DNA of 64,000 nucleotides, taken from assembly GCA_963750695.1 (NCBI GenBank), contig CAVVSB010000002.1, forward strand, positions 68,047 to 132,046, read 5' to 3'. The notes under the pieces are model-generated. The model ran no database searches and was not told the origin of the DNA. It saw only the letters and a list, made by a program, of their open reading frames with translations. Position numbers and translations under genes: made by a program. Below, one piece after another: positions 2,823 to 18,420 of this stretch; position 1 is the stretch's first letter; every line of letters begins with the position of its first letter. The DNA is from an uncultured Solirubrobacterales bacterium. Its GTDB lineage: Bacteria; Actinomycetota; Thermoleophilia; Solirubrobacterales; Solirubrobacteraceae.

Positions 2823-4178
2823 GTGACCTGCGGGATGTCGGCGCGGTTCAGGACCCAGATCGGGCTGATCGGGCTGGTCGCGCTCGGCATCCGGCTGCTC
2901 TACATCCTCGCGATCGCCCCGGCGCCAGCCGGCGTCGGCGGCGATGCCGGCTTCTACCACAGCGCCGCCAATCTGATTGCGCACGGCCACTTCTACTACC
3001 GCGGGATCTTCGGCCATGCCTACCACACCGCAGAGCACCCACCGCTCTATCCGCTCGTGCTGTCGCTCAGCTCGCTCGCCGGCGGCGACACGCTGAGCGC
3101 CCACCGGATCGTCTCGTGCGTAGTCGGGTGCGTCGGGGTGATCCTCGTCGGGCTGCTCGGCCGCCGCATCGCTGGTGACCGCGCGGGCCTCATCGCGGCC
3201 GGGATCGCCGCCGTCTACCCGCCCTTCATCACCGCCGACGGACTCGTCATGAGCGAGCCGCTGTTCGTCGTGACGGTGACCGCGGCTCTGCTCGCTGCGC
3301 TCACCCTCCTGAGTGCGCCGACGACCCGCAACGCCGCGATCCTCGGCGCGGCGGTCGCGCTCGCGACCCTCACGCGCGGCGAGGGGATCCTCCTCCTCCC
3401 CCTGCTCGCCTGGCCGGCCGCCGGCCTCGCGGCCCGCGACCACCGCGTGGGCCGGGTCCTCGCCGCCACCGCCGCCACCGTCCTCGTCCTCGCGCCGTGG
3501 GTCATCCGCAACGTCATCGTCTTTCACACCCCGACGGTCGCCGCCGACTCCAACACGGTCATCGCGGGCGCAAACTGCCCGGACACGTACTACGGCCACG
3601 ACATCGGGTGGTGGAGCAACCGCTGCCTCCAGCGGGCCCGCACGCGTGAGCAGCTGCTCGTCGGCGATGCCTCGACGCGTGCCGCCTACACCTACGCGGG
3701 TGACCACCTCATCCGGCTGCCGCTGATCGCCGTTGTGCGCGTGCTCCGCACGTTCAACCTCTTCCAGCCGCTGCGTCAGGGCAACCGGGAGCCGCGCGTC
3801 GAGTGGGTCGACGTCGTCGGGCTCATGATCTACTACCCGCTGCTCATCATCGCCGTGATCGGCGCCGTCAGAATGCCCGACCGGCGGGCTCGATGGGTGC
3901 TCCTCGCCCCGATCGCGATGGTCGTCATCGTCAGTGCGCTGACCTGGGGCATCGGCCGCTTCCGGGTCGCGGCCGATGTCTCGCTCATCGTCTTTGCCGC
4001 CAGCGCTTTCGCAGCGCGACGATCCCGAGCGCCGTCCGGTAACACGCGTACGGCAGCAGCGAGCGATCCCGCTCGACCTGCCGGATCAGCCACGTGGAGC
4101 CGAGCGTGGAGCCGAACGACGCGAGCGCTCCGGCCGCGAATGGGACAGCCGTCGCCGGCGGTAGCCCGCGGCGCTTGA
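2823..4178 (+). CDS. Glycosyltransferase family 39 / ArnT-PMT-like GT-C membrane protein
   Basis: Multi-TM protein with N-terminal GDAGFYH loop, HPPLYP, MSEPLF and LTRGE; start may be ATG 2835; the 3' end runs antisense into uppP. Confidence 0.75.
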   Translation: MTCGMSARFRTQIGLIGLVALGIRLLYILAIAPAPAGVGGDAGFYHSAANLIAHGHFYYRGIFGHAYHTAEHPPLYPLVLSLSSLAGGDTLSAHRIVSCVVGCVGVILVGLLGRRIAGDRAGLIAAGIAAVYPPFITADGLVMSEPLFVVTVTAALLAALTLLSAPTTRNAAILGAAVALATLTRGEGILLLPLLAWPAAGLAARDHRVGRVLAATAATVLVLAPWVIRNVIVFHTPTVAADSNTVIAGANCPDTYYGHDIGWWSNRCLQRARTREQLLVGDASTRAAYTYAGDHLIRLPLIAVVRVLRTFNLFQPLRQGNREPRVEWVDVVGLMIYYPLLIIAVIGAVRMPDRRARWVLLAPIAMVVIVSALTWGIGRFRVAADVSLIVFAASAFAARRSRAPSGNTRTAAASDPARPAGSATWSRAWSRTTRALRPRMGQPSPAVARGA

Positions 4179-4809
4179 GCCTCACGCCCTTGAGCAGCGT
4201 TGCGCCGGCGATCACGGGCAGCGCGACGTGGCGCGAGAGCCGGTTCGCGTCCTCCCGGGTGAACAGCCGAAAGCGCGCCGCCGCGAGCGTCGCCCCGTTG
4301 CGTGAGACGCCGGGGATGAGCGCCGCCGCCTGCGCGACACCGAGCCACAGCGCGTCGACGGCCCGCGCGTCGTCGTGGCGACGGACCTGCGGTCGGCGGT
4401 CGGCGAGTGCCATGACCGCTGACCCCAAGATCAATCCGGCGGCGATCGTCGGCGGCGTCCCCAGCCGAGACTCGATCGGCCGCTCGAGCGTGTACCCGAC
4501 GATGGCCGGCGGCGCGAACGACAGCGCGATCAGCAGCATGCGGCGCATGTCGAGCCCGCCGACTGCCTCACCGACCTCGTCACGGAGGGTGATCAGCAGC
4601 GCAGCCGCCGTGCCGGCGTGGAGCACCACCTCGAAGGATTTCCGGAGCTCGGGGTCGAGCCGGTCGTAGTCCCATCCGAGCAGCCACGGAATGAGTGCGA
4701 TGTGGCCGGAGGACGAGATCGGGAGCAGTTCCGCGGGGCCGTGGAGTGCCCCGAGGGCGAGTGCCTGTCCGAGCGCGAGACGGTCCCCTGGCTGACGGCT
4801 AGCCGTCAA
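3985..4809 (-). CDS. uppP: Undecaprenyl-diphosphate phosphatase (BacA/UppP)
   Basis: ELLPISSSGH, LHAGT and ALIPGVSRNGAT motifs; TTG start at 4809 inferred (the ORF-track start at 5124 is a spurious extension). Confidence 0.9.
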   Translation of the reverse strand: MTASRQPGDRLALGQALALGALHGPAELLPISSSGHIALIPWLLGWDYDRLDPELRKSFEVVLHAGTAAALLITLRDEVGEAVGGLDMRRMLLIALSFAPPAIVGYTLERPIESRLGTPPTIAAGLILGSAVMALADRRPQVRRHDDARAVDALWLGVAQAAALIPGVSRNGATLAAARFRLFTREDANRLSRHVALPVIAGATLLKGVRLKRRGLPPATAVPFAAGALASFGSTLGSTWLIRQVERDRSLLPYACYRTALGIVALRKRWRQRR

Positions 4810-4930
4810 GGGAGCACATGACAGAGGCGGCGAGCGGCAAAGCTCGGCAAGGGTACCGGCACCAGGGCCGACCCCGAGCCGCCGGGCGGTGGCTTCGCGG
4901 ACGGGCCTGGATAGGGTGAGGGAGATGCCG

Positions 4931-5935
4931 ATGAACGTCTGGGTCGACCTCACGAATTCCCCCCACGTGCTGGTGATGCGTCCGGTGATCGCCGAGCTGC
5001 GGGCCCGGGGCCATCGCGTCCAGGTGACCGCCCGCGACTTCGCCCAGACGCTCGGACTGTGCCGGCGCTTCGGCATCGAGCACACGGCGATCGGCCGCCA
5101 CCGCGGCGGCGGTCTCGCGGCCAAGGGGATTGGTCTGATCCGGCGCTCCGCCCAGCTTGCACGGTGGGCGGACGGCCGGCGCTTTGATCTCGCCCTCGGT
5201 CACGGGTCGAACGACATCACGGTCGCCGCCCGGCTGCTGCGGATCCCGTGCTCGACGATGTTCGACTACGAGTGGGCGATTGTCCAGCACACCGTGAACT
5301 GCCGGCTTGCGCAGGGCGTCGTCGTGCCCGACGCGATCCCGCCCGAGCGCCTCAGGCGCTACGGCGCAACTCGCAAGCTGCACCCGTACCCGGGCCTCAA
5401 GGAGGAGTACTACCTCGCGGACTTCGAGCCGACGAACGAGGTGCTCGATGAGCTGGGCCTCGATCCGGCCGAGCCGATCGCGGTCATCCGCACGCCGCCG
5501 GCCGTTTCGCTCTATCACCGATTCGAGAACGACCTGTTTGCGAGCGTGCTCCAGCGGCTGCGCGGCACCCAGGTCGTCGTCCTGCCCCGAACCTCCGAGC
5601 AGCGCGCCGACCTCGAGCGGGCCGGCGGCTTCATCGTGCCTGAGCAGGCGATCGATGCGCAATCGCTGATCGCCTACGCGGATCTCGTCGTCTCGGCCGG
5701 CGGGACGATGAATCGGGAGGCGGTCGCCCTTGGTACGCCCGTGTACACGGCGTTCGAGGGGCGTCTGGGGGCCGTCGACGAGCGGCTCATCGCCGACGGG
5801 CGCCTCAGGCAGCTGACGGCCGCCAGCGACGTGTGCCTCGTCAAGTACGACCGCAGCCGCCACCGGCCACGAATCCGCCGCAATCCAGGGAAACTGACGG
5901 ACCTTCTGCTGGCGCCCGCGCTAACGCGCTCTTAG
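4931..5935 (+). CDS. DUF354 family GT-B-fold protein
   Basis: VWVDLTNSPHV, HGSNDI, YPGLKEEYYL and SAGGTMNREAVALGTP; GGAG RBS at 4921-4924. Confidence 0.85.
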   Translation: MNVWVDLTNSPHVLVMRPVIAELRARGHRVQVTARDFAQTLGLCRRFGIEHTAIGRHRGGGLAAKGIGLIRRSAQLARWADGRRFDLALGHGSNDITVAARLLRIPCSTMFDYEWAIVQHTVNCRLAQGVVVPDAIPPERLRRYGATRKLHPYPGLKEEYYLADFEPTNEVLDELGLDPAEPIAVIRTPPAVSLYHRFENDLFASVLQRLRGTQVVVLPRTSEQRADLERAGGFIVPEQAIDAQSLIAYADLVVSAGGTMNREAVALGTPVYTAFEGRLGAVDERLIADGRLRQLTAASDVCLVKYDRSRHRPRIRRNPGKLTDLLLAPALTRS

Positions 5936-5975: not shown

Positions 5976-7946
5976 ATGCGCCGGCGGATCAGATCCGCGG
6001 CCTTCCCCGTTCATCGCCACTCGTTGCCCCAGCTGCTGTTGGACGGTGCCTTGGTCGCGCTCGCGTACTACCTCGCGTTCCAGCTGAGGTTCGAAGGCCA
6101 TGTCCTCATCCGCTACGAGGATCTGTTTGAGCGCACGATTCCGTGGGTCGTCCCCGTCTGGCTGGTCGCGCTCGCAGCATTTGGCTGCTATCAGCGGCTG
6201 TGGACGTTCGTCAGCCAGCGTGAGTACGAGGCCGTCGTCAAGGCGGCGATCGTCGCGACGTTGGTCATCGTCGGCGCGATCGCGCTCCTGCACCCGGTGC
6301 AGACGCCGCCGCGGATCGTGCGGCACCACGACTCCTTCTCGATCACCTCGACTGCCGTCACGCTCCCGGCAAGCGTGATCGCGCTGTGCTTCCTGCTGAC
6401 GCTCCTGCTGCTGCTCGGCGCCCGATTCATCATCCATCTGATCGTGGAGGGGCGGGTCCGGAGCTTCCGCGTGAGCAAGGGTGCGCGTGACGCGCTGATC
6501 GTCGGCGGTGGCGAGGGCGGCCGGCTCGTGGCCCGCGAACTCGTCCGCAACCCGCAGCTACGGCTGCGTCCCGTCGGGTTCGTCGATGATGACCCGCGCA
6601 AGCAGGGGATCAAGGACGAGTACGGGTTGAGAGTGCTCGGGACGACCTCCGCCGACGACCTGGCGCGGATCCTCGACGAGGTCGAGCCGGACGAGGTCGT
6701 GATCGCCATGCCCTCCGCGCCGGGCACGCTGCGTGCGCGCGTCGTCGCGGCATGCCGGGCGCGCGGGATCCCGGTGCGGACGATGCCGACCGTATTCGAG
6801 CTGCTCCGTGAGGGTTCCGGTCAGCTCAAGGTGACCCGTCAGCTGCGTGAGGTCCGCGTCGAGGACATGCTCGGCCGAGAGCCGGTGCGGATGGAGCTCG
6901 AGCGGGTCGGGGCCTATCTTGCCGGCAAGGTTGTGCTGGTCACCGGTGCCGGCGGTTCGATCGGCAGCGAGCTCTGCCGCCAGATCGCTCGGGTCGGTCC
7001 GCGCAAGCTCGTACTCGTCGACCACGCCGAGGACAACCTCTTCGAGATTTTGCGCGAGCTTGAGGAGGAGCGGCACGTGCGCACCGCCACGCCCGTGCTC
7101 GCCGACTGCAAGGAGGAAGAACGGATGCGGGAGGTGCTCACCGAGCACCGGCCTGCGATCGTGTTCCACGCCGCGGCGTACAAGCACGTGATGATGATGG
7201 AGCTCAACCCGGTCGAGGCGGTGCGCAACAACGCTCTCGCGACGCGGCTCGTGGCGCGGATCGCGGGTGAGGTCGGGGTCGAGACGTTCGTCCTCATCTC
7301 GACCGACAAGGCGGTCAAGCCGGCGACCGTGATGGGTGCCTCCAAGGCGCTCGCCGAGTGGGCGGTCGAGGCGGCCGCCGCGAAGTATCCGGCCACGCGC
7401 TACGCGACTGTCCGGTTCGGCAACGTGCTCGGCTCCTCAGGCTCGGTCGTTCCGATCTTCCGCCGCCAGATCGCGGCCGGCGGGCCGGTCACCGTCACCG
7501 ACGAACGGATGACCCGCTACTTCATGACGATCCCGGAGGCGGTCCAACTCGTCATCCGGGCCGGCTCGCTCCACGACGGCAGCGGCGAGGTGTTTGTCCT
7601 GGAAATGGGCGAGCCGGTGAAGATCATCGATCTCGCCGACACGATGATTCGGCTCTCCGGGCTCGAGCCGGGGCGTGACATCGCGATCGAGGTCGTCGGG
7701 GCGCGAGCCGGCGAGAAGTTCCACGAGGACCTGTTCAACCCGACCGAGCACCCCCAGCCGACGCCGGCGCAGAAGATCCTGCGCGCCCAGCGGGAATCGC
7801 TCGATCCGGCCTGGGTCGAGGACGCGTTCGGCCGCATCAACCTGCTCGTCCTCGAGGGCGATGCGGCCGTGCTGGCGGAGCACGTATCGAGCCTCGCGTG
7901 GGGCCGACCGACGTCCGAGCCTCCTGGCGCCCGGATCGCCACGTAG
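5976..7946 (+). CDS. Membrane-bound nucleoside-diphosphate-sugar 4,6-dehydratase (CapD/PglF/WbpM family)
   Basis: N-terminal TMs; GFVDDDP; VLVTGAGGSIGSELCRQI; HAAAYKHV; ISTDKAV; RFGNVLGSSGSV; MTRYFMTIPEA. Confidence 0.95.
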   Translation: MRRRIRSAAFPVHRHSLPQLLLDGALVALAYYLAFQLRFEGHVLIRYEDLFERTIPWVVPVWLVALAAFGCYQRLWTFVSQREYEAVVKAAIVATLVIVGAIALLHPVQTPPRIVRHHDSFSITSTAVTLPASVIALCFLLTLLLLLGARFIIHLIVEGRVRSFRVSKGARDALIVGGGEGGRLVARELVRNPQLRLRPVGFVDDDPRKQGIKDEYGLRVLGTTSADDLARILDEVEPDEVVIAMPSAPGTLRARVVAACRARGIPVRTMPTVFELLREGSGQLKVTRQLREVRVEDMLGREPVRMELERVGAYLAGKVVLVTGAGGSIGSELCRQIARVGPRKLVLVDHAEDNLFEILRELEEERHVRTATPVLADCKEEERMREVLTEHRPAIVFHAAAYKHVMMMELNPVEAVRNNALATRLVARIAGEVGVETFVLISTDKAVKPATVMGASKALAEWAVEAAAAKYPATRYATVRFGNVLGSSGSVVPIFRRQIAAGGPVTVTDERMTRYFMTIPEAVQLVIRAGSLHDGSGEVFVLEMGEPVKIIDLADTMIRLSGLEPGRDIAIEVVGARAGEKFHEDLFNPTEHPQPTPAQKILRAQRESLDPAWVEDAFGRINLLVLEGDAAVLAEHVSSLAWGRPTSEPPGARIAT

Positions 7947-7960
7947 ACTGCGCTCGCAGC

Positions 7961-9148
7961 ATGGCGTCGATTCCCTTCGCCTTCTCGGTCCACCACTTCA
8001 TCAACTCGGTGGGCGCGTACGCAGGCTTTGCCGCAATCATCGGCTTGGCCGTCCTTGTGCTGCTCTATTTCGCGCAGGCACGAGAGACCGCGTCCCTGCG
8101 CGAGCAGGCCTACGAGTCGGCCCAGCACGTCCAGCAGCTCGAGAACCGGATCGCCCAGCTCATCGCCCGCCAGCCTGCGCCCGCGCCGGCCCCGCCGGTT
8201 GCCGTCCCCGCCCCCGAGCCGGCCGTCACCGGCACGGGAGCGCCACGCCCCGCTGCGGCGACCGCAGGCGCGGGAACGGCCCTCGCGACGGCGACGGCGC
8301 TGCCCGAGGTCGGTGCTCCCGCTGGTGTCGGCGCACCCGCGCTCACGGCCGCCACGAAGCTGATACCGGCCGGGGCGGTCGCTGCCGGCCTCGAGGCGTT
8401 CGGCGGTGACGAGCCCGACCTCACGACGGTCGGCGCGCCGGCTCCGGCCACTGTCGCCGGCGGCGCCAACGGCCACGCGACGATGCCACCGCCACCCGTC
8501 GGCGCCCCGGCGAGCGCCCAGCGGACCGGCGCAGGCGAGCAGACGGCGCCGCCACGCATCCAGATCCGTCCGAGCGCGGCGTCGATTCCCGGCGGTCGAC
8601 GCACGTCGCCGCCACCACGTCAGCAGGCTCAGCAGCGTCCGTCGACGGGCCGCCGGATCGTCGTGGCGCTCCTCGGCTTGCTCGTCGTCGCGGGAATCGT
8701 CGTCGCCCTGTTCGTGATCACGAACAGCGGGAGCAAAACGAACACGGGCTCCCAGCAGACCGCGGACAAGAGCACGACCAGCACGACGCCCGCCCGGCGT
8801 AAGCGCAAGCAGCCAGCCGCGTTCTCGCCCTCATCGGTGACCGTGTCCGTGCTCAACGGCACCGCGACCGCACAGCTCGCCCATCGGGTCTCGACGAAGC
8901 TCACCGGCATCGGCTACAAGGAGGGCACGGTCGCGACGGCCGCCGACCAGACGCGGACAGCGACCGTCGTCGCCTACCTTCCGGGCCACCAGCGTGACGC
9001 GCTCGCGGTGGCCAAGTCGCTGAAGCTCGGGCCGGCTTCGGTGCAGCCGATCGACCAGAGCACGCAGGCGGTCGCGTGTCCGCCCGGGACCGCCTGTGCG
9101 GGAGGCGTCGTCGTCACCGTCGGCTCCGACCTCGCCAACATCCAATAG
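7961..9148 (+). CDS. Membrane protein with Pro/Ala linker and LytR C-terminal domain
   Basis: Two TM segments and a low-complexity linker; C-terminal VSVLNGT...GLA-type LytR_C motif and VVTVGSD. Confidence 0.8.
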   Translation: MASIPFAFSVHHFINSVGAYAGFAAIIGLAVLVLLYFAQARETASLREQAYESAQHVQQLENRIAQLIARQPAPAPAPPVAVPAPEPAVTGTGAPRPAAATAGAGTALATATALPEVGAPAGVGAPALTAATKLIPAGAVAAGLEAFGGDEPDLTTVGAPAPATVAGGANGHATMPPPPVGAPASAQRTGAGEQTAPPRIQIRPSAASIPGGRRTSPPPRQQAQQRPSTGRRIVVALLGLLVVAGIVVALFVITNSGSKTNTGSQQTADKSTTSTTPARRKRKQPAAFSPSSVTVSVLNGTATAQLAHRVSTKLTGIGYKEGTVATAADQTRTATVVAYLPGHQRDALAVAKSLKLGPASVQPIDQSTQAVACPPGTACAGGVVVTVGSDLANIQ

Positions 9149-9156
9149 CCGAGGCC

Positions 9157-9930
9157 ATGATCGATCTTCTCGACCTCCCCGATCGGAGCGACAAGCCGCG
9201 CGGGCAGGGCATCACGCACGTCCTCGACCGAGGCCTGTCCGTCGGCGAGGTCGAGGGCCTGATCGAGAGTGCGGGCGAGTACATCGATCTGGTCAAACTC
9301 GGTTGGGGCACCGCACTCGTCACCGGCAACCTCGAGGGCAAGCTCGAGCGCTACCGGGCGGGCGGGATCCCGGTCGTGCTCGGCGGCACGCTGACCGAGC
9401 TGGCGATCGCCCAGGGACGGCTCGAGCCGTTCATCGAGTGGATCCGCGAGCTCGGGCTCGAGCACATCGAGATCTCAGACGGCACGATCACGATGCCGCA
9501 CGAGGAGAAGCTCGGCCTGATCGAGCGGTTCGCCTCGGAGTTCACGGTGCTCTCAGAGGTCGGCTCCAAGGACGACACGCGGATCATGGCCCCGTATCGC
9601 TGGGTCGAGCTCATTGAGAAGGAGCTCGAGGCGGGCTCGTGGAAGGTGATCGCCGAGGCGCGCGAGAGCGGAAACGTCGGCATCTTTCGGCACGACGGCG
9701 AGGTCCGGATGGGCCTGATCGACGAGATCGCACACGCGGTCGCCCCGGACCGGATCCTGTTCGAGGCCCCCCGTAAGGAGCAACAGGTCTGGTTCGTCCG
9801 CCGCTTCGGTCCCAACGTGAACCTCGGCAACATCGTGCCCGAGGACGTGGTCTCGCTCGAGACGATCCGTCTCGGCCTGCGCTCGGACACGGCGGGGGCC
9901 GGTGCGGTCGTGGCCACCGAGGATGATTGA
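9157..9930 (+). CDS. comA: Phosphosulfolactate synthase (ComA family)
   Basis: KPRGQGITHVLDRG, VKLGWGT, GGTLTE, EISDG, SEVGSK, EARESG, FEAP and NVNLGN motifs; GAGG RBS. Confidence 0.92.
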   Translation: MIDLLDLPDRSDKPRGQGITHVLDRGLSVGEVEGLIESAGEYIDLVKLGWGTALVTGNLEGKLERYRAGGIPVVLGGTLTELAIAQGRLEPFIEWIRELGLEHIEISDGTITMPHEEKLGLIERFASEFTVLSEVGSKDDTRIMAPYRWVELIEKELEAGSWKVIAEARESGNVGIFRHDGEVRMGLIDEIAHAVAPDRILFEAPRKEQQVWFVRRFGPNVNLGNIVPEDVVSLETIRLGLRSDTAGAGAVVATEDD

Positions 9931-10489
9931 GCCGCACGCACCGGGCGCAATCCTTCTCGCGCGACACGGCCAGACGAACGACAACCTAGAGCCGATCCGG
10001 GCTCAGGGTTTCCGCGACACGCCGCTGAACGAGACCGGCCGCCGCCAGGCGGCGGCGCTCGCGGAGCGGGTCGCGGACATGGGCATCATCTCGATCTGGG
10101 CCTCGGACCTGAGCCGTGCTCGGGAAACGGCGGAGACCGTCGGCCGGCGGCTCCGCCTCGACGTGCGCTTCGATGCGCGGCTGCGCGAGGCGTACCGGGG
10201 CCGGTGGGAGGGCTACCGGTTCGTCGACATCGCACGCACCGACCCGGCCGGCTATGCGGCCTGGGTGCGCGCCGGTGAGGGGTTCCGCTTTCCCGGCGGC
10301 GAATCGCTGCTCGAGCAGCAGGAGCGCGTTGCGGCGACGCTCGAGGACGTCCGCGTAGCCGGCGAACTGCCGGCCCTCGTCGTCTGCCACCGCGGCTCGA
10401 TCCGCGTCATCCTGTGCCTCTCGCATCCGCGCGGCCTGGCGGCGTTCCACACCATCCCGGTGCCGAACACGGCGGTCGTGCCGCTGTGA
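9923..10489 (+). CDS. Histidine phosphatase family protein
   Basis: LARHGQT (RHG), LSRARET, E..GRWEG and VCHRGSI; start overlaps the comA stop. Confidence 0.9.
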   Translation: MIEPHAPGAILLARHGQTNDNLEPIRAQGFRDTPLNETGRRQAAALAERVADMGIISIWASDLSRARETAETVGRRLRLDVRFDARLREAYRGRWEGYRFVDIARTDPAGYAAWVRAGEGFRFPGGESLLEQQERVAATLEDVRVAGELPALVVCHRGSIRVILCLSHPRGLAAFHTIPVPNTAVVPL

Positions 10490-12258
10490 GGCGGCTCCCG
10501 GCGCTGGCGTTCGCCGCGCTCGTCATCGCGACGGTCGGGGCCTTCTTCGTCACCCAGCACCTCAAGTCCTCGACCCCGCTGTACGCCGGGTTCCCGCGCC
10601 CGAAGCCGCAGTGGATCAACCCGGTCAGCGGAGGCTCGTGCGACGGCGTCAGCCACCGGTCCACAAAGATCTCGTTCTATCTGCTGCACCGCGCCGACGA
10701 CGTCGACGTGTACATCGTCAACAGCGCCGGGGCGATCGTCCGCACGGTCGCCTCCGGCCGCCACATGCGCATCCGCGTCCGCCGCCCGGACGGGGAATTC
10801 GAGTGGGACGGGCGCACCGACAGCGGGGCCGTGGCGCCGGACGGGGTCTACCACTTCCGGGTCGCGCTGCGCCAGCAGGGTCGCACCGTGCAGCTGTCGC
10901 AGCCGGTGATCGTCGAGACCGTCCCGCCCCATCCGCGGGTGACGAGTGTCACGCCGGCGCTCATCCCACAGGACGGGACGCCGGCGCGCATCCGCTACCG
11001 CGGTAACGAGCGCCGGGGCGGGACGCTGCTGATCTACCGCACGGACGTGGCCGGGACGCCCCCGGTTGTCGAGAGCGTCCCGATCAGTCCCCGCGTGCCG
11101 GCGACGTGGGACGGGCTCATCGGCGGCCGTCCGGCGCCCGCGGGCACGTACCTGATGGGCCTCCGGTTCGTCGACCGCGCGTGCAACGTCGGACGCTTCC
11201 CGAGCGAATTGCCTCCCGTGCCCGGCTCGACCTCACACGCCGGGCTGACCGTGCGCTATCTCGCGGCGCAACCGCCGATGGCACCGGTTGCGGCCGGGTC
11301 ACGCGCGCTCGTCTGGGTCGACTCCCGGCAGCGGGCCTACCGGTGGGCGCTGACGCGCGTTGGTGCGCGCAAGCCGGTGGAGCATGGGACCGATCGTGCG
11401 GTCGCGCTCCACGTCCGTCTCCCGCGGTCGCTCGGCGCCGGCCTGTACGTCCTGGCGTTGCGGTCCGGTTCGCATCGCACCGCGGTCCCGCTCGTCGCCG
11501 ACGCGGCGAAGCCCGGGCCGCACGTGCTCGTCGTCCTACCCGCGCTCACCTGGCAGGGACTCAACCCGGTCGACGACAACGGCGACGGATTGCCAGACAC
11601 GCTGACGGCCGGGGGCCCGATTCGCCTGACGCGGCCGCTCGCCGACGGGCTCCCGCCGGGCTTCGACGATGAGGCGTCCCTGCTCGCCCACCTCGATCGC
11701 GCTCATCTGCCGTACGACCTGACGACCGACATCGGTGTGATCAATGGGGTCGGCCCGGCGCTCAGCGGTCACACCGGCGTCGCGCTCGCGGGCGCGCAGC
11801 GCTGGACCGCGCTGGCGTTTGGTGCGGGTCTGCGCGCGTTCGTCGCCCGCGGCGGGCGGGTCGCGTCGTTCGGCGTCGACACCCTGCGTGCCGGCGTCCG
11901 CGTCACCGGCAAGGTCGCGAGCAATCCCTCCGGTCTCGCCTCGACGGACCTGTTCGGGGTCGCTGCGGCGGCGTTGGCGCGCAGCCATGACCTGATCACG
12001 GTGATCCGGGACGACCTGCACATCTTCACGGCGACGTCCGGCGCGTTCCCCGGCTTCACGTCGTTCCAGCCGCTGCACGCGCCGCGCCCACCGGCATCGG
12101 CCGCCGGAACGAGTAACGCGACGACGAGCATCATCGGCGTGCACGTCGGTCGCGGGACGCTCGTCGAGGTCGCCCTCCCCGGCTTCGGTGCCGCCGTCGC
12201 CAGCAACGTCGACGCGCAGGAGTTCCTCGGGTCGCTGTGGACGTTCCTCCGTCGCTGA
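10486..12258 (+). CDS. Secreted protein with FlgD Ig-like domain and N,N-dimethylformamidase beta-subunit-like C-terminal domain
   Basis: Signal/TM; IVRTV..G...FEWDGRTDSG...PDGVY FlgD pattern; VLVVLPALTWQGLN resembles the DMFase-beta domain; GTGA overlap with the upstream gene. Confidence 0.6.
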   Translation: MRRLPALAFAALVIATVGAFFVTQHLKSSTPLYAGFPRPKPQWINPVSGGSCDGVSHRSTKISFYLLHRADDVDVYIVNSAGAIVRTVASGRHMRIRVRRPDGEFEWDGRTDSGAVAPDGVYHFRVALRQQGRTVQLSQPVIVETVPPHPRVTSVTPALIPQDGTPARIRYRGNERRGGTLLIYRTDVAGTPPVVESVPISPRVPATWDGLIGGRPAPAGTYLMGLRFVDRACNVGRFPSELPPVPGSTSHAGLTVRYLAAQPPMAPVAAGSRALVWVDSRQRAYRWALTRVGARKPVEHGTDRAVALHVRLPRSLGAGLYVLALRSGSHRTAVPLVADAAKPGPHVLVVLPALTWQGLNPVDDNGDGLPDTLTAGGPIRLTRPLADGLPPGFDDEASLLAHLDRAHLPYDLTTDIGVINGVGPALSGHTGVALAGAQRWTALAFGAGLRAFVARGGRVASFGVDTLRAGVRVTGKVASNPSGLASTDLFGVAAAALARSHDLITVIRDDLHIFTATSGAFPGFTSFQPLHAPRPPASAAGTSNATTSIIGVHVGRGTLVEVALPGFGAAVASNVDAQEFLGSLWTFLRR

Positions 12259-12274
12259 TGGCGACGGAGCTCCG

Positions 12275-12679
12275 TCAGCGGTCGCCCGCCGGAGGTTCTC
12301 CGGGCGGGGGTGCTGGCACCGAGCCACCCGACGTCGACGCGACCCCGGCCGCAACCTCGGCCGCTGCTGCTGCGGCCCCGGCCACGGTCACCGCCTCGGG
12401 ATGCTTGGCTGCGGCGTGGTCGGCGAGGACCTGCTCGGCCGTCGGGGAGTCGCGGGGATGGTGCTTGCGACAGACGATGTGGTCGGTGCCGGCGACGGGG
12501 TGGCGGCCGATCCGGAAGCAGCCCTTCACGACGCAGTTGTGCCGGCGGAAGATGGCGTACGCACCGCCGAGCAACGTGATGTCGGCCAGTGGTCCGCTGA
12601 CGAAGTTGTAACCGTCCGGGTCGTGCCAGGTCCAGCGCAGGGCCTCCCAGAGCCCGCTGAGGAAAGCCGCGTGGAGCAC
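12275..12679 (-). CDS. Small membrane protein with a His/Cys-rich motif (HNC-x4-C...H...C-x2-HH)
   Basis: 134-aa ORF with one hydrophobic segment, then RRHNCVVKGCFRIGRHPVAGTDHIVCRKHHP; TACCTT -10 box 8 nt upstream. Confidence 0.65.
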   Translation of the reverse strand: MLHAAFLSGLWEALRWTWHDPDGYNFVSGPLADITLLGGAYAIFRRHNCVVKGCFRIGRHPVAGTDHIVCRKHHPRDSPTAEQVLADHAAAKHPEAVTVAGAAAAAAEVAAGVASTSGGSVPAPPPGEPPAGDR

Positions 12680-12755
12680 GGCGCGGCAAGGTAGTCCTCC
12701 GCCCGGACGGAGCCACGGGCGTCGACCGCCCGTCCAATCCGTACCGTGTGGCGGC

Positions 12756-14222
12756 GTGACCGGCTACCTCAAGCGCCTCGTCAGCTCGCTCGCGGCCTAT
12801 CAGCTCGCCGACGTCGTCTCGAAGTTCATCGCGGTGCTGCTGTTGCCGGTGTACACGCGGTACATCAATCCCGCGGGCTACGGCGTTGTCGAGTTGCTCG
12901 CCAACGGGGTGATCTTCGTCAGCATCCTGGTGCGCTTCGGGATGATCGAGGCGTTCCTCCGCTACTACTACACCGACGAGGACCCGCAGACACGCGATGC
13001 GCTCGTCCGGCGCGCGTTCGTGTTCCTGCTCATCACCACGACGGTCACGGCGGCGATCCTCGCCGCGTTCGCCGGTCCGTTGTCGAAGATCGTGCTCGGC
13101 CATCGGGACACGACCACGTTCCTGATCGCGGTGCTCGGGCTGTGGACGTTCACGAACCTCGAGTTTGCCTACGGCCTGCTCCGCGTCGACGAGCGATTGC
13201 GCGTGTACGCGATCGCGACGGTCTCCAACGTCCTGTTCACCGTGGCGCTGACCGTAATCCTCGTCGTCGGCCTCGGCAAGGGGTACCGCGGCCTGCTGCT
13301 CGGCAACTACGCCGTGTCGACCGTCGTGCTGTTCGTGCTGTGGTGGACGATGCGCCACCGGCTGCGGCCGCACCACGGTCGCGGGGAAAGACTTGCCGCG
13401 CTCCTGCGTTTCGGCCTGCCGACCGTGCCCGCCGAGATCTCCGTGTATGCGCTCAACATCATCGACCGCTATTTCATCTATCACCAGCGCAGCCCCGCCC
13501 TCGCCGGTCTCTACTCGATCGCGGTGAAGCTGGCCGGGGCGGTGGCGTTCATCGTGCGCGCGTTCCAGTACGCCTGGCCGCCGCTCGCGTATTCCGTGAC
13601 CGATGACGCAGAAGCGGCCCGTCTGTACGGCCTCGTGACGACGTACTACGTGCTCGTCGCCGGGTGGGCGGTCGCGGGGCTCGCCCTGCTCGGGCGGTGG
13701 GTGCTCCGGGTGCTCACCACGCCGGAGTTCTACGGCGCCTACAAGGCGCTGACGTGGGTCTCGCTCGGGTGGGCGATGTACGGCCTGTGGGTCGTGTTCC
13801 TCGTGATCGCCGGGCGTGCCAAGGTGACGACGCGCAACTTCCCGGCCTCGCTCGCCGGGCTGGCCGCGAACATCGTGCTCCTGATCGTGCTCGTGCCGCC
13901 GCTCGGCATCGCCGGTGCCGGGCTCGCGCTGTGCGGCGCGTACGTCGCGATGCTCGGGCTCATGTACGTGCTCACTCGCCGGCTGTTCACGGTCGCGTTC
14001 GAGTGGCGGCGACTCGTCCAGATCGTCGTCATCGCGGGCGGGATTGCGGCGGCGGGCGATCTGATGCTGCCGACGCACGGCCTATCCGGGTTCGTCTCCC
14101 GGGCGGTGGCGTTCGCCCTCGTCCCGGTGCTGCTGTTCGCGACCCGGTTCGCCCACCGCGAGGAGCTGCTGCAGCTTCGTGCCCTCCTCGCCCGACTGCG
14201 CCCTGCGGGAGGGACGGCATGA
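12756..14222 (+). CDS. Oligosaccharide flippase (Wzx/MOP family)
   Basis: About 12-14 TMs; LLPVYTRY..PAGYG, LLRFGLP, IDRYFI and GLYSIAVKLA. Confidence 0.9.
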   Translation: MTGYLKRLVSSLAAYQLADVVSKFIAVLLLPVYTRYINPAGYGVVELLANGVIFVSILVRFGMIEAFLRYYYTDEDPQTRDALVRRAFVFLLITTTVTAAILAAFAGPLSKIVLGHRDTTTFLIAVLGLWTFTNLEFAYGLLRVDERLRVYAIATVSNVLFTVALTVILVVGLGKGYRGLLLGNYAVSTVVLFVLWWTMRHRLRPHHGRGERLAALLRFGLPTVPAEISVYALNIIDRYFIYHQRSPALAGLYSIAVKLAGAVAFIVRAFQYAWPPLAYSVTDDAEAARLYGLVTTYYVLVAGWAVAGLALLGRWVLRVLTTPEFYGAYKALTWVSLGWAMYGLWVVFLVIAGRAKVTTRNFPASLAGLAANIVLLIVLVPPLGIAGAGLALCGAYVAMLGLMYVLTRRLFTVAFEWRRLVQIVVIAGGIAAAGDLMLPTHGLSGFVSRAVAFALVPVLLFATRFAHREELLQLRALLARLRPAGGTA

Positions 14223-15529
14223 GCCGGCCGCCGGTCACCGTGGTGATGCCGTTCGCGGGGACGCGGCGGGAGGCCGACGCGGCGCTCGCCTCGCTTGCGG
14301 CGCTCGACATCCGGCCCGGCGACGAATTGCTGTTCGTCGACAACACACGCGACCCGGTGACGACGGGTCCCGAGACGACGGTCACGATCGTCCGCGCGGT
14401 CGCCGAGCATTCGCCCGCATACGCGCGGAACATCGGCGCCGAAGGGGCCCGCAACGCGTGGGTGCTGTTCCTCGACGCCGACACGCGGGCACCGGCCGAC
14501 CTGCTCGACGCCTACTTTGCGGCCGGGGAGCCCGCGGCCGACGTCGGCGCGCTCGCCGGTGAGGTCGTCGGGGCGGCGGGCGATGTGAGCGTCGCCGCCC
14601 GCTACGGCGCCGCGCGCGGCTTCCTCAGCCAGGCGACGCACCTGGCGCACCCGTACCGCCCGCGGGCTGTCGCAGCGAACCTGCTCGTCCGGGGCGACGC
14701 CTTTGCGCAGATCGGCGGCTTTTACGAGGGCGTCCGCGCGGCCGAGGACACCGATTTCAGCTGGCGCCTGCAGCAGGCGGGGTGGCGGCTCGAGCTGCGG
14801 CCGGACGCTCGCGTCGAGCATGTGTACCGCACCACCGTGCGCGCCCTACGTCGGCAGTGGCGCGGGTATGCGGCCGGCCGGGCGTGGCTCGGTCGCCGCT
14901 ACGAGGGGTTCGCCCCGGAGCCGGCGCTGCGCCGCGTCCTGCGTGGGCAGGGGCGGCGCTCGGGCGGGTCCGGTGCGCCGGCACGTCCGGGCGGGCCGCC
15001 CTCGCCCCTCGAGCGCGCGCGGCATCTCGTCCTCGACGGCGTGCTCGCGATCGAGGAACTCGTCGGCTTCCTCCTCTCCAACCAGCCGCGCCGCCGCCGC
15101 ATGGCTGAGAGGCCGCAGGTCGTGCTCGTCGCGGACCGCTTCCCCGCTCAGGACGATCCGCTCGTCGAGTTCGCCCGCGCGCTCGATCGTGCCCGGGTCG
15201 AGGCCGTTGCGCGCCCGTCACGGGTGTCCCCGGAGGCGTCCCGTGCCCTGCGCATCGACTATCGCGAGGACGACGGGGCGGCTGCGCGAGCGATCGCGAT
15301 CGCACGGTTGGCGCTCCGCCACCCGCTGCGGATGATCCGGGCCGCGCGATCCGGCGAGCCGGGCATCGCGGAGCTGGCTCCGGCGGCGGTTCGGCTCGCC
15401 CGTGAGCCCGCGGCGCGGCTGCAGGCGCTCGGCGGCGGCGAAGCAGAGCGGATCGCGGCGGCGCTCGCCCGGTTGAGCGGCCGGCCGAGCGACGGCGGCC
15501 GGCACACCGAGGGCGGCGGAGCCGTCTGA
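14219..15529 (+). CDS. Glycosyltransferase family 2 with a C-terminal extension
   Basis: VTVVMPF, FVDN, LFLDAD and GGFYEGVRAAEDTDF; ATGA overlap with the flippase. Confidence 0.85.
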   Translation: MSRPPVTVVMPFAGTRREADAALASLAALDIRPGDELLFVDNTRDPVTTGPETTVTIVRAVAEHSPAYARNIGAEGARNAWVLFLDADTRAPADLLDAYFAAGEPAADVGALAGEVVGAAGDVSVAARYGAARGFLSQATHLAHPYRPRAVAANLLVRGDAFAQIGGFYEGVRAAEDTDFSWRLQQAGWRLELRPDARVEHVYRTTVRALRRQWRGYAAGRAWLGRRYEGFAPEPALRRVLRGQGRRSGGSGAPARPGGPPSPLERARHLVLDGVLAIEELVGFLLSNQPRRRRMAERPQVVLVADRFPAQDDPLVEFARALDRARVEAVARPSRVSPEASRALRIDYREDDGAAARAIAIARLALRHPLRMIRAARSGEPGIAELAPAAVRLAREPAARLQALGGGEAERIAAALARLSGRPSDGGRHTEGGGAV

Positions 15530-16632
15530 TGCGCGTCGATCTCATCGACGCGTCGGCGTTCACACCTCCGTACGAGCATGCGCTCGCCGCTGCGCTCGCC
15601 CGCGCCGGGGTGACCGTCCGGCTCGTCACGAGTCGCTTTCCGTATGCGGAGGTTCCGGCGCCGGAGGGATACTCCGTGTGCGAACACTTCTACCGGCACG
15701 CCCGCGGCGCGGCCGGGTCACGCGCGCGCCGGCTCTCAAAGCTGGCCGAGCACGTCCCCGACATGCTCCGCTATCGCCGGCTGCGCCGAGACGCGGACAT
15801 CGCGCACTTCCAGTGGCTCGATGTGCAGTGGCTCGACGGCGTCCTGCTGCCCACGCGGCCGCGGGTGCTGACCGCGCACGACCTGCTCCCGCGCGAGCCG
15901 AGGCCGGGTCAGGCGGCCGCCCAGCGGCGCCTGCTCCGGCGGATGGACGCCGTCATCGCTCACTCCGACTACGGACGGCGACAACTGATCGACGGTCTCG
16001 GGCTCGCCCCGGAGCGCGTCCACGTCATTCATCACGGTGCGTTCGACCACCTGACGGCGCGCGCCGACGAGCGGCCGCTGCCCGAGGAGCTGCAACACGT
16101 CGACACGCCGGTCGTCCTGTTCTTCGGGCTGCTGCGGCCGTACAAGGGTCTCGACGTGCTGCTCGACGCCTGGCGCGGTGTGGCCGATGCGGAGCTGTGG
16201 ATCGTCGGGCATCCACGGATGCCGCTCGAGCCGTTGCAGGCGCGCGCCGGGGCGGGCGTCCGCTTCGTCACGCGGTTCGTCGCCGACAGCGAGCTGCCGG
16301 CGTTCTTCCGCCGCGCCGACGTCGTCGTGCTCCCGTACACGCGGACCGAGCGATTCGATCAGTCCGGGGTGCTCGCGACGGCACTCGCGTTCGGCACGCC
16401 GAGCGTGCTCAGCGACATCGGGGGGTTCGCCGAGATCGCCGCGACGGGCGCCGGCCGGCTCGTGCCGCCGGGTGATGCCGTCGCGCTCCACGAGGCGCTG
16501 ACGTGGCTCCTCGGCGACGCCGCGCTCCGGAGGCAAATGGGTGAGGCGGCGGCGCGGGCGGCGGCGAAACCGTATTCGTGGGATGCAGCGGCCCGCCGCA
16601 CGCTCGACCTGTACGAGTCGCTCCTGGGGTGA
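15529..16632 (+). CDS. Glycosyltransferase family 4
   Basis: LTAHD, FFGLLRPYKG, ADVVVLPY and QSGVLATALAFGTP. Confidence 0.92.
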   Translation: MRVDLIDASAFTPPYEHALAAALARAGVTVRLVTSRFPYAEVPAPEGYSVCEHFYRHARGAAGSRARRLSKLAEHVPDMLRYRRLRRDADIAHFQWLDVQWLDGVLLPTRPRVLTAHDLLPREPRPGQAAAQRRLLRRMDAVIAHSDYGRRQLIDGLGLAPERVHVIHHGAFDHLTARADERPLPEELQHVDTPVVLFFGLLRPYKGLDVLLDAWRGVADAELWIVGHPRMPLEPLQARAGAGVRFVTRFVADSELPAFFRRADVVVLPYTRTERFDQSGVLATALAFGTPSVLSDIGGFAEIAATGAGRLVPPGDAVALHEALTWLLGDAALRRQMGEAAARAAAKPYSWDAAARRTLDLYESLLG

Positions 16633-16675
16633 CGGCGCGGTCGGCAGGCGCGGCGGTCGGTCACAATCCGCCGCC

Positions 16676-17833
16676 GTGACCGTGCTCGCGATTCTGTTCT
16701 GGGTCTGCACCGGCCTGCTCATCTACACGCACGTGGGCTACCCGGTGGTGCTGGCGCTGCTGGCGCGGCTGCGGCGCGGCCCGCGTGGCGCGAGCGGCGC
16801 GAGCAGGCGACGAGCGGCGGGCGCCGACACCGCCGCCCTGCCCGAGGTCTCGGTGATCATCGCCGCGTACGCCGAGGAGGACGTCATCGCTCCCCGGATC
16901 GAGAACCTGCGGTCCCTCGACTACCCCGCGGACAAGGTCGAGGTGATCGTCGCGTGCGACGGGTCACCGGATGCGACGGCAAACCGCGCTCGAGACGCTG
17001 GCGCCGACGTCGTGCTCGAACTCCCCCGGGGAGGCAAGATCCGGGCGCAGGACGCAGGCGTCGATCGATCCCGCGGCGCGCTCGTCGCGTTCTCGGATGC
17101 CAACGCCCTGTGGGAGCCCGCCGCGCTACGCCGCCTCGCGAGCGCGTTCGACGATGCACGCGTCGGCTACGCCTGCGGCCAGGTGCGGTTCGTCAACGAG
17201 CACGGCTCGAACCAGGAGGGGCTCTACTGGCGATACGAGATGGGCGTCCGCGGGCTCGAATCGCGGGTGCGGTCGGTCACCGGCGGTAACGGCGCGATCT
17301 ACGCCACGCGCCGCGAGTCCTACCTCGTCGTCGACCCGATCATGGGCCACGACCTGTCGTTCCCATTCAACATGGTCAAGCGCGGATGGCGAGCGGTCTA
17401 CGTGCCGGACGCCCGGGCGACCGAGAAGATGGTGCCGACGATCGAGGGCGAATTCGCCCGCAAGCGGCGGATGATGAGCCACGGGTGGCCGATCGTCCTC
17501 CGCGGCGGGATGCTCTCGCCACGCGGTTACGACCCGCTGTACGCACTGATGATCTTCTCGCACCGGATCCTGCGCTACATGTCCCCGTTCCTGCACCTGG
17601 CGGCTCTCGGGCTGAGCATCGCTCTCGTCGGGCAGGGTTGGATCTACATCGCCGCGGTGGCCGTGCAGGTGGCGATCCTGATCGCTGCGCTGCTCGCGCC
17701 GCTGGTACGCGTCAAGCCGTTTCTCGTCGCGCGGTATTACGTGATGACGACGGCCTCGCTCGCCGCCGGCCTGTGGGACTGGCTCGCCCACGGGACGGCC
17801 GCTGGCTGGGAGCCCGCCGAGGGCACGCGATGA
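16676..17833 (+). CDS. Glycosyltransferase family 2 (membrane-associated, PgaC/IcaA-like)
   Basis: VSVIIAAYAEE, VACDGSPD, AFSDAN and NGAIYATR; C-terminal TMs; GTG start at 16676 inferred. Confidence 0.88.
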   Translation: MTVLAILFWVCTGLLIYTHVGYPVVLALLARLRRGPRGASGASRRRAAGADTAALPEVSVIIAAYAEEDVIAPRIENLRSLDYPADKVEVIVACDGSPDATANRARDAGADVVLELPRGGKIRAQDAGVDRSRGALVAFSDANALWEPAALRRLASAFDDARVGYACGQVRFVNEHGSNQEGLYWRYEMGVRGLESRVRSVTGGNGAIYATRRESYLVVDPIMGHDLSFPFNMVKRGWRAVYVPDARATEKMVPTIEGEFARKRRMMSHGWPIVLRGGMLSPRGYDPLYALMIFSHRILRYMSPFLHLAALGLSIALVGQGWIYIAAVAVQVAILIAALLAPLVRVKPFLVARYYVMTTASLAAGLWDWLAHGTAAGWEPAEGTR

Positions 17834-18420
17834 AACGCTCTCTCGACGTCGTGCTTGGCCTCGCCGGGGCGATCGTCTCGGCACCGTTCGTCGCCCTGCT
17901 CGCGCTGCTCATCCGGCTTGAGACGCCGGGGCACCCGATTTACACGCAGACCCGGGTCGGCCTCGACGGGCGGACGTTTGCGATCTACAAGCTGCGGACG
18001 ATGGTCCGCGGCGCCGAGTTCACCGGCGCCGGGCTCTCGATCCAGGAGGGCGATGACCGGATCACCCGGATCGGGGCTTGGCTGCGGCGCTACTCACTCG
18101 ACGAGCTCCCGAATCTCTGGAACGTCGTCCGCGGTGACATGTCGATCGTCGGCCCGCGCCCGACGATTCCGGTGCAGGTCGAGCAGTACACCGAGCGCCA
18201 GCGCGGCCGTCTGTGCGTCAAGCCAGGAATCACCGGCTGGGCGCAAATCAAGGGGCGCGCCGCCCTACCCTGGTCTGAGCGGATCGAGCTCGACCTCTGG
18301 TACGTCGAGCACCAATCGCTCGCGCTCGATCTGAAGATCGTGGTGCGGACCATTGAGATGGTCTTCACCGGACGAGGCCTCTACAAGGGAGAAACTGGCG
18401 GATGGCACCCCCGGGCGTAG
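17830..18420 (+). CDS. Initiating polyprenyl-phosphate phosphoglycosyl transferase (PglC-like 'sugar transferase')
   Basis: KRSLDV, YKLRTM, DDRITRIG, SLDELP, GPRP and KPGITGWAQI; ATGA overlap. Confidence 0.93.
   Translation: MKRSLDVVLGLAGAIVSAPFVALLALLIRLETPGHPIYTQTRVGLDGRTFAIYKLRTMVRGAEFTGAGLSIQEGDDRITRIGAWLRRYSLDELPNLWNVVRGDMSIVGPRPTIPVQVEQYTERQRGRLCVKPGITGWAQIKGRAALPWSERIELDLWYVEHQSLALDLKIVVRTIEMVFTGRGLYKGETGGWHPRA

Follow-up and report, generated by a model that had tools for sequence, protein, structure and literature searches.

Predicted phosphosulfolactate synthase with a non-ComB histidine phosphatase in a conserved envelope-glycan operon of Solirubrobacteraceae

What does a gene for phosphosulfolactate synthase, comA, do among genes for a surface glycan? 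The question is raised by a 64,000-nucleotide stretch of DNA from an uncultured bacterium of the Solirubrobacteraceae (hereafter the window; contig C2 of genome G000, positions 68047-132046; genome of 7.5 Mb, ~70% GC, 95.6% complete), in which comA overlaps the gene of a His_Phos_1 phosphatase, here called HP, and both lie in a run of envelope-glycan genes. An initial annotation of the window had proposed that the phosphatase replaces ComB, which removes the phosphate from phosphosulfolactate in known pathways, and that the sulfolactate so formed decorates the polymer. We found that the feature is real, conserved and new to the literature that we searched: sulfonate synthesis by ComA has been recruited into an envelope-glycan operon together with a phosphatase other than ComB. 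The literature searches returned no paper in which a phosphosulfolactate synthase is linked to a histidine phosphatase, nor any on a sulfolactate-bearing glycan. The explanation that we prefer, that ComA and a non-dedicated HP would together make sulfolactate for the envelope glycan, is based on sequence comparison, and we give it a probability of roughly 0.4. The comparison comprised a family survey of 141 Solirubrobacteraceae genomes and a wider sample of 401 Actinomycetota genomes; G numbers other than G000 denote compared genomes, L numbers denote fetched loci, and f1, f3, f4 and f7 are families of Thermoleophilia, of which f4 and f7 lie outside Solirubrobacteraceae.

The comA reading frame extends on the forward strand from an ATG at 9157 to a TGA at 9928-9930 (9157..9930) and encodes 257 amino acids, predicted to form (2R)-phospho-3-sulfolactate synthase, which joins phosphoenolpyruvate (PEP) and sulfite. 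The protein matches the Pfam ComA family PF02679 over positions 2-243 of the 243 in the model (297 bits, E 1e-88, cut-off 25.2) and scores 255 bits with TIGR03849, the archaeal equivalog model of NCBIfam, just under its cut-off of 280. Its closest solved structure is Bacillus subtilis YitD (1U83, E 2e-58), followed by Methanocaldococcus jannaschii ComA (1QWG, E 7e-48), and the SEVGSK lysine block, EARESG and FEAP-K-QQ align with 1U83 and 1QWG-type sequences. The full-length family match and this alignment confirm the complete motif set, including the SEVGSK lysine, that had been read from the sequence initially. ComA is single-copy in the window's genome, and the relatives retrieved by protein search all belong to Solirubrobacterales or Solirubrobacteraceae (Thermoleophilia, Actinomycetota). 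By sequence it is a canonical-looking phosphosulfolactate synthase and very probably carries out this chemistry.

The HP gene (9923..10489, forward strand) begins at an ATG at 9923, with an alternative GTG at 9902, and ends in a TGA at 10487-10489. Reading the sequence directly, we found that comA and HP overlap by 8 nt (ATGATTGA), and the product matches PF00300 with 162 bits, in agreement with the overlapping RHG phosphatase reported at first. HP in turn shares its last 4 nt, stop codon included, with the following gene, which starts with GTG (GTGA, 10486-10489). The gap between the end of the upstream LytR_C gene and comA is 9 nt, and a promoter/terminator scan, otherwise uninformative, found no terminator-like site from the LytR_C gene through comA and HP to the downstream gene. 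By the PF00300 match and by alignment to PhoE, HP has the complete catalytic set of RHG, Arg, Glu and second His; the blocks ARHGQT, SDLSRA, REAYRGRWEG and CHRG align with PhoE, and the catalytic residues are kept in all orthologues. Among solved structures its best relatives are PhoE (1EBB), followed by the glucosyl-3-phosphoglycerate phosphatase GpgP of Mycobacterium tuberculosis (4PZ9; E 2e-17); both hydrolyse small phosphoglycerate-type acids, which may bear on the substrate of HP. HP scored under the cut-off of every NCBIfam equivalog model, the best being CobC TIGR03162 with 127 bits against 162.9, and these models assign it to no characterised subfamily (CobC, GpmB, PspA, GpgP). In Pfam and NCBIfam it matched His_Phos_1 only, placing it outside the ComB fold family.

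The absence of comB and comC, which had been noted for the window, extends to the whole genome. ComB (PF04029) was not found anywhere in it by a search that matched 7 of 14 control genomes, nor was ComC (Ldh_2, PF02615) by a search that finds its targets in control genomes, and no Lyase_1 gene of the Xcb type stands beside comA in the window. Of the pathway genes of coenzyme M (CoM) synthesis, ComB and ComC are thus without a match in the genome, and the XcbC-E route has no lyase gene beside comA; ComDE was not searched for. Given that ComB and ComC are lacking, sulfolactate or phosphosulfolactate would be an end product here and not an intermediate of CoM. Three genes of the PAPS_reduct family (CysH/CysD family) are present in the genome, and sulfite should therefore be available.

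To describe the neighbourhood of comA we call the interval from the LytR_C gene to the downstream ectoprotein gene the slot, and we call the ComA of the glycan operon cluster-type, as distinct from a divergent ComA (~52% identical) found elsewhere in some genomes. In all of the 80 loci whose ComA is most similar (73-93% identity) the order is CapD-(LytR_C)-ComA-HP-downstream gene-flippase-GT2-GT4-GT2-Bac_transf (GT, glycosyltransferase). These loci form one clade and a wider survey was therefore needed; slot contents in the 141 genomes were read from representative fetched loci. The gene order of the glycan operon proved to be conserved in more than 100 loci, and in the 141 genomes the slot takes four forms: ComA with HP, ComA alone with HP elsewhere, HP alone, or neither, the last seen in G158. 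Cluster-type ComA was present in 68 of the 141 genomes and the HP orthologue, nearly always single-copy, in 99. The two genes immediately adjoin in 43 genomes and are both present but not adjacent in 22, while 3 genomes have ComA without HP, 34 have HP without cluster-type ComA, and 21 carry ComB-family genes.

HP was thus found somewhere in 65 of the 68 ComA genomes as against 34 of the 73 genomes without cluster-type ComA (naive Fisher p = 4e-11, uncorrected for phylogeny and inflated because the genomes share ancestry). Two of the three ComA genomes that lack HP, G300 and G493, have ComB, which also occurs in 3 adjacent-pair genomes and in some ComA-less genomes; no ComB-family gene of any kind was found in 37 of the 43 adjacent-pair genomes, and the high-scoring ComB type only in 3. 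ComA therefore appears to depend on HP or ComB. The position of ComA itself is stable: besides the 43 genomes in which HP stands beside it, it occupies the same slot in 6 of 6 checked genomes without adjacent HP (G510, G436, G465, G459, G494 and G300, where it directly precedes the downstream gene), with about 15 more inferred. HP lies elsewhere in the first five of these and is absent from G300. That ComA is still wedged between envelope genes after HP has left speaks for a functional connection with the envelope pathway and against chance, and the association of ComA with the glycan operon is robust, old and conserved.

The relocated HP genes were found in two settings. In G459 (L150), G465 (L146) and G494 (L162) the gene is divergent from one for an FbiC-like radical-SAM FO synthase, and in G510 (L144) and G436 (L152) it directly follows a small glyoxalase/VOC gene behind an AraC regulator; the VOC protein has only ordinary homologues in the window's genome. 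Separate from the glycan operon, some Solirubrobacteraceae carry a second, divergent ComA (~150 bits) near a divergent ComB (~110-120 bits), a classical ComA-ComB pair (G045:C1:263224-268889; also G468:C9, G517:C9, G515:C73, G429:C48 and G451:C204). ComB is present in 6 of the 7 genomes that carry the divergent ComA type.

Trees of the operon proteins trace the history of the slot. The CapD tree has two main clades within Solirubrobacteraceae and the ComA tree is congruent with it, the cluster ComAs forming one clade that is sister to the ComAs of f4 and f7. In the HP tree one clade (support 100/97) takes in all HPs of the family regardless of slot state, separate from the only paralogue in the window's genome and from a His_Phos_1 enzyme of G388; when the tree is rooted, its earliest branches are cluster HPs whose cluster is without ComA. 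Together, these data indicate that both genes were ancestral to the slot and vertically inherited. In the simplest history the ancestral slot would have held both ComA and HP; ComA was then lost repeatedly while HP stayed, and HP was relocated at least twice while ComA stayed. At one site (G491, contig C7, 665138-666382) three short ComA fragments lie directly upstream of HP, which looks like decay of ComA in progress within the slot.

Beyond the family, the ComA of f4 and f7 lies 2-6 kb from the same CapD/DUF354 genes, with other partners. In f4 ComA is flanked by an ATP sulfurylase (Sat) and an FAD_binding_2 protein, after which comes a conserved protein of ~665 aa that is secreted (L112 of G131, 6397-11672; L111 of G322, 7508-12472, with a LysR regulator upstream in L111). 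The sulfurylase and FAD_binding_2 pair is possibly a sulfite-generating module; the secreted protein has no Pfam match and no BLAST similarity to the window's downstream protein. In an f7 locus (L114 of G223, 8144-11655) ComA has a two-subunit class I fumarase-like pair on one side and a TauE/SafE sulfite/sulfonate exporter on the other, a context which suggests that the sulfonate has another fate in this family. No homologue of the f4-type Sat exists in the window's genome; the f4 FAD protein (36-39% identical) and the f7-type TauE do have homologues in it, but on other contigs, away from the window. Across the wider sample ComA was found in 42 of 401 genomes, and its contexts elsewhere in Actinomycetota are unrelated (PrpD/MmgE, Lyase_1 with ATP-grasp, DUF7714, Meth_synt_2). 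For example, ComA stands between an ATP-grasp gene resembling L-amino-acid ligases and an Xcb-like lyase gene of the aspartase/fumarase family in L122 (G160, 8429-11932), and a distant ComA-like gene adjoins MmgE/PrpD and DUF488 in L115 (G011, 9263-11857). G388, an f4 genome, was considered as an independent ComA/His_Phos_1 pairing and rejected: its His_Phos_1 is unrelated and divergently adjacent, and 0 of 17 loci of that protein lie near ComA, so that it is a singleton. The supposed comA-phosphatase-GT linkage is upheld for the ComA slot in Solirubrobacteraceae and for proximity to CapD/DUF354 in f4 and f7; in the 401-genome sample the pairing with the phosphatase was seen only within the family, the unrelated G388 case apart.

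The genes around the pair in the window, all on the forward strand, are those of a surface-glycan operon, with Bac_transf, Polysacc_synt, two GT2, one GT4, PMT_2 and Polysacc_synt_2 genes in the same orientation. At the upstream end of the run is a GT-C type glycosyltransferase of the PMT_2 type (2823..4178; PF13231, 49.7 bits), a gene that likewise precedes DUF354 in some of the related loci. It is followed by a GT-B-like DUF354 protein (4889..5935; PF04007, 147.5 bits), which has no PDB sequence match and of which a second paralogue, 55% identical to the window copy, lies on contig C13 (350160-351155), and by a membrane-bound CapD/PglF-like UDP-N-acetylhexosamine 4,6-dehydratase (5976..7946; Polysacc_synt_2, 361 bits, with CoA_binding_3) on which the PseB and FnlA models score under cut-off. 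DUF354 and CapD are syntenic in f1, f3, f4 and f7 and are constant partners across the class. Directly before comA is a gene for a membrane protein with a C-terminal LytR_C domain (7961..9148; PF13399, 49.8 bits), its likely start being the ATG at 7961 in a frame that opens at 7898. The translation has hydrophobic helices and an Ala/Pro-rich linker, and a weak match to NF035953 (Cei) accords with a Cei-like envelope protein.

Downstream of HP lies a GTG-started gene (10486..12258) for a membrane-anchored extracytoplasmic protein of 590 aa with FlgD_ig and DMFA2_C matches. An AlphaFold model built with 37 orthologues (predicted local distance difference test score, pLDDT, 92.3) shows several Ig-like beta-sandwich domains between a membrane anchor at the N-terminus and an alpha/beta domain at the C-terminus; its top Foldseek matches are N-acetyl-beta-phenylalanine acylase (8I59/8HUY) and dimethylformamidase (6LVE) with E from ~1e-11 to 1e-9, and a PDB sequence search gave weak matches to the FlgD Ig-like domain only. 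This ectoprotein is the constant downstream neighbour and was found in every slot state, and is therefore not specific to sulfolactate. The run continues with a Wzx-like flippase of the MOP family (12756..14222; Polysacc_synt, Polysacc_synt_3), a GT2 enzyme without PDB sequence match (Glyco_trans_2_3; listed as 13664..15529, which overlaps the flippase, the true start being probably near 14222), a GT4 enzyme (15529..16632; Glyco_trans_1_4, Glycos_transf_1, Glyco_transf_4) whose closest solved relative is MshA (3C48, E 3e-14), a further GT2 enzyme (16541..17833; Glycos_transf_2; 6YV7, E 7e-13) and a PglC-like initiating polyprenyl-phosphate sugar-phosphate transferase (Bac_transf, 17386..18420; PF02397, 209 bits; TIGR03025, 264 bits), the domain of which covers residues 150-327 of the frame and begins at ~17833, leaving the start codon uncertain. 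Among the window frames scanned there was no Pfam match to a Wzy polymerase or ligase; frames between genes were not examined further. Two gaps of 0.5-0.7 kb in this tightly packed run (4179-4888 and 12259-12755) contain no convincing open reading frame by third-position GC content, and the corresponding gaps in relatives measure 0.5 to >5 kb and hold extra genes.

One member of the run as first described does not belong to it: the CapD-like, LytR_C, flippase, GT and PglC-like genes were identified by Pfam and NCBIfam as stated, but the "ATP-grasp" gene (39-1055) is a D-Ala-D-Ala ligase (Ddl) above NCBIfam cut-offs (DdlA-like; NF002528, 378 bits), split off from the glycan operon by an oppositely oriented Ser/Thr kinase gene. 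As a DdlA-type enzyme beyond that gene it was rejected as a sulfolactate ligase. In several relatives the window Ddl is likewise found next to the kinase gene, where the glycan locus ends; a second Ddl of the DdlB type, 36% identical to the window copy, is encoded on contig C3 (88277-89200).

The pathway that we propose runs in three steps. ComA would join PEP with sulfite, the latter possibly coming from an assimilatory CysH route elsewhere in the genome, to form (2R)-phospho-3-sulfolactate, a step that is well supported. HP would then take off the 2-phosphate to yield sulfolactate and so fill the role of the missing ComB; this would be only one of the activities of a phospho-acid phosphatase of broader range, which was already part of the glycan operon. 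Since ComC is lacking, sulfolactate would be the end product, and in the third and weakest step it would pass to the surrounding envelope-glycan pathway and become a sulfonated substituent or aglycone, either of the polymer or of a glycoconjugate that the operon glycosyltransferases make. The ComA-HP pair would then be an accessory module of ancient origin, passed on vertically, that occupies a fixed slot in a conserved operon of Solirubrobacteraceae. Retention of HP in 65 of 68 ComA genomes, ComB in two of the exceptions, the lack of ComB in 37 of 43 adjacent-pair genomes and the 8-nt overlap together make HP the best candidate for the phosphosulfolactate phosphatase, and from these comparisons we consider the odds that it acts as one here to be even. 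That the product goes to the glycan is a tentative proposal, somewhat short of even odds; nothing in the window obviously attaches a hydroxy-acid to a sugar, so that decoration of the polymer is something we only infer.

A number of observations weigh against this explanation. The window contains no obvious enzyme for attaching a hydroxy-acid, be it a ligase, an acyltransferase, a nucleotidyltransferase or one of another kind. HP occupies the slot in genomes with no ComA at all (G455, G438, G417, G423, G404, G467, G431, G449 and G366), and in 11 of 11 checked genomes without cluster-type ComA the slot HP has intact catalytic residues; G210 and G505 have HP in the slot, a divergent ComA (~52% identical) elsewhere, and ComB. 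The HP sequence tracks phylogeny and not the state of ComA, with no sign of a specificity tuned to phosphosulfolactate. Outside the family, the ComA of the fetched f4 and f7 loci has no adjoining phosphatase, the 401-genome sample holds no ComA-phosphatase adjacency beyond the unrelated G388 case, sampled actinobacterial comA genes outside Thermoleophilia have no CapD, DUF354 or operon-type neighbours, and a Pfam scan of the immediate ComA neighbours in four such loci found no glycan genes. HP is not a dedicated ComB analogue, since it is present where ComA is absent. Its persistence in catalytically intact form in ComA-less lineages implies a ComA-independent job in or near the pathway, and because it does not need ComA it is better described as a broader phospho-acid phosphatase than as a specialised ComB replacement. 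Of the suggestion that the RHG enzyme replaces ComB, what stands is that ComB is absent and that HP is kept by nearly all ComA genomes; that it is dedicated to this role does not, the same orthologue occupying ComA-less slots.

These observations lend themselves to a reading in which HP serves another glycan step, phosphosulfolactate is not its physiological substrate and the overlap reflects shared operon membership only. The substrate of HP could be a glycosylated phospho-acceptor or a sugar phosphate, the product of ComA being used as such or by another enzyme. Dephosphorylation following glycosylation is familiar from GpgP, which acts after GpgS, and from MshA2, which acts after MshA; a glucosyl-3-phosphoglycerate phosphatase is among the solved relatives of HP, and the operon GT4 comes closest to enzymes of the MshA type, whose glycosyl acceptor is phosphorylated. 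The intact slot HPs of the 11 genomes without cluster-type ComA, the origin of the earliest HP branches in ComA-less clusters and the persistence of operon ComA where HP has moved away fit this reading as well, and phosphosulfolactate is known to be handled without ComB in bacteria (PMC9457059). The near-constant retention of HP with ComA, with ComB in two of three exceptions, speaks against it, as does the fact that the genes beside ComA in Solirubrobacteraceae include no other evident phosphatase and no evident enzyme that uses phosphosulfolactate. In addition, phosphosulfolactate has no free hydroxyl and therefore cannot be a glycosyl acceptor before dephosphorylation. We regard this reading as rather unlikely. 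A related idea, in which sulfolactate mimics D-3-phosphoglycerate for a GpgS-like GT, was dropped, (R)-sulfolactate being L-like by Cahn-Ingold-Prelog reasoning and no GT81-like enzyme having been found.

Alternatively, sulfolactate may stay free in the cytoplasm as a solute, counter-ion or sulfite sink, as in B. subtilis spores, with none in the polymer and with the position in the glycan operon due to inherited synteny or to co-regulation with envelope growth. Free spore sulfolactate is, to our knowledge, the only known role of bacterial ComA/ComB products outside CoM, and the window ComA resembles YitD. The lack of an attaching enzyme in the window is consistent with a free product, the f4 ComA, grouped with Sat and the FAD protein and preceded by a LysR regulator, has the look of a self-contained sulfonate module, and the operon persists without ComA, which is therefore dispensable for it. 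This alternative is unlikely, however, given that ComA (66-93% identical) is held at one tight slot among envelope genes across family-level divergence and stayed there even after HP left, and that in Solirubrobacteraceae it is grouped, by predicted co-transcription, with membrane and extracytoplasmic envelope genes and not with those of sulfur assimilation. A role in CoM biosynthesis, for which ComA is the first enzyme in class I methanogens (PMC9457059), or in sulfolactate breakdown with ComA reversed to PEP and sulfite, is highly improbable. We rejected CoM biosynthesis because the genome is without ComB and ComC and no Xcb-type Lyase_1 partner adjoins ComA, unlike in L122, and the catabolic direction because there is no kinase partner and a phosphatase beside ComA would be futile; the envelope-biosynthesis context disfavours both.

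Comparison with known systems places the proposed sulfolactate route between several of them. With M. jannaschii ComA/ComB and B. subtilis YitD/YitC it shares the full-length ComA, the lysine motif and the predicted chemistry, from PEP and sulfite through phosphosulfolactate to sulfolactate. It differs from both in lacking ComB, the phosphatase being an unrelated His_Phos_1 enzyme that is not confined to ComA genomes, and from M. jannaschii CoM synthesis also in lacking ComC and with it a route to sulfopyruvate or CoM; its genes lie inside an envelope-glycan operon, away from sulfate-activation genes such as B. subtilis yitA/B and from CoM genes. Bacterial CoM synthesis in Xanthobacter (XcbB-E) likewise employs a ComA homologue whose product is taken by an enzyme other than ComB, but there a lyase of the aspartase/fumarase family processes phosphosulfolactate by eliminating phosphate (PMC9457059), and no such gene stands beside the window's ComA. 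In misaugamycin B a ComA homologue supplies the 2-sulfoacetyl tail, a sulfonated acyl decoration (PMC9136965), and misNOPQ resembles our case in that ComA was recruited to supply a sulfonated small acid decorating another product; it has its own acyl carrier protein, acyl-CoA ligase and glyoxalase and a peptide antibiotic as product, none of which the window has, its context being a glycan operon. GpgS/GpgP of mycobacterial methylglucose lipopolysaccharide (GpgP, Rv2419c, 4PZ9) combine a His_Phos_1 enzyme and a three-carbon phospho-acid in an actinobacterial glycan pathway, though the similarity of HP to GpgP is at superfamily level only and no GpgS-like GT81 was recognised. Finally, the operon resembles Wzx-dependent loci of the PglC/PglF type in its Bac_transf, PglF/CapD-like 4,6-dehydratase, MOP flippase, GT2, GT4 and GT-C; relative to these it lacks an identified bacillosamine-type aminotransferase or acetyltransferase and a recognisable Wzy, and it has ComA, HP, the LytR_C protein and the dimethylformamidase-like ectoprotein in addition.

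Sulfolactate is a C-S bonded, permanently anionic three-carbon acid, and sulfonates are rare in bacterial envelopes, examples being sulfoquinovose in some archaeal N-glycans, taurine amides and sulfonolipids. Solirubrobacterales abound in soil, and ComA stands inside the glycan operon in about half of the Solirubrobacteraceae genomes sampled. ComA seems to rely on an enzyme, HP, that the operon already had, which calls for caution in annotation by neighbourhood. The presence of ComA within an envelope operon points to an undescribed sulfonated envelope component. It is a more doubtful suggestion that Solirubrobacteraceae, perhaps Thermoleophilia, build a sulfolactate-bearing envelope polymer or glycoconjugate, its acid formed by ComA and set free by a promiscuous HP, that ComA-less lineages use a non-sulfonated counterpart or none, and that the slot may act as a surface-charge switch. 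If the product does reach the surface, it would represent a new class of wall decoration and a new sink for sulfite and PEP, and the genomes with both genes, one or neither would offer a natural series for functional study.

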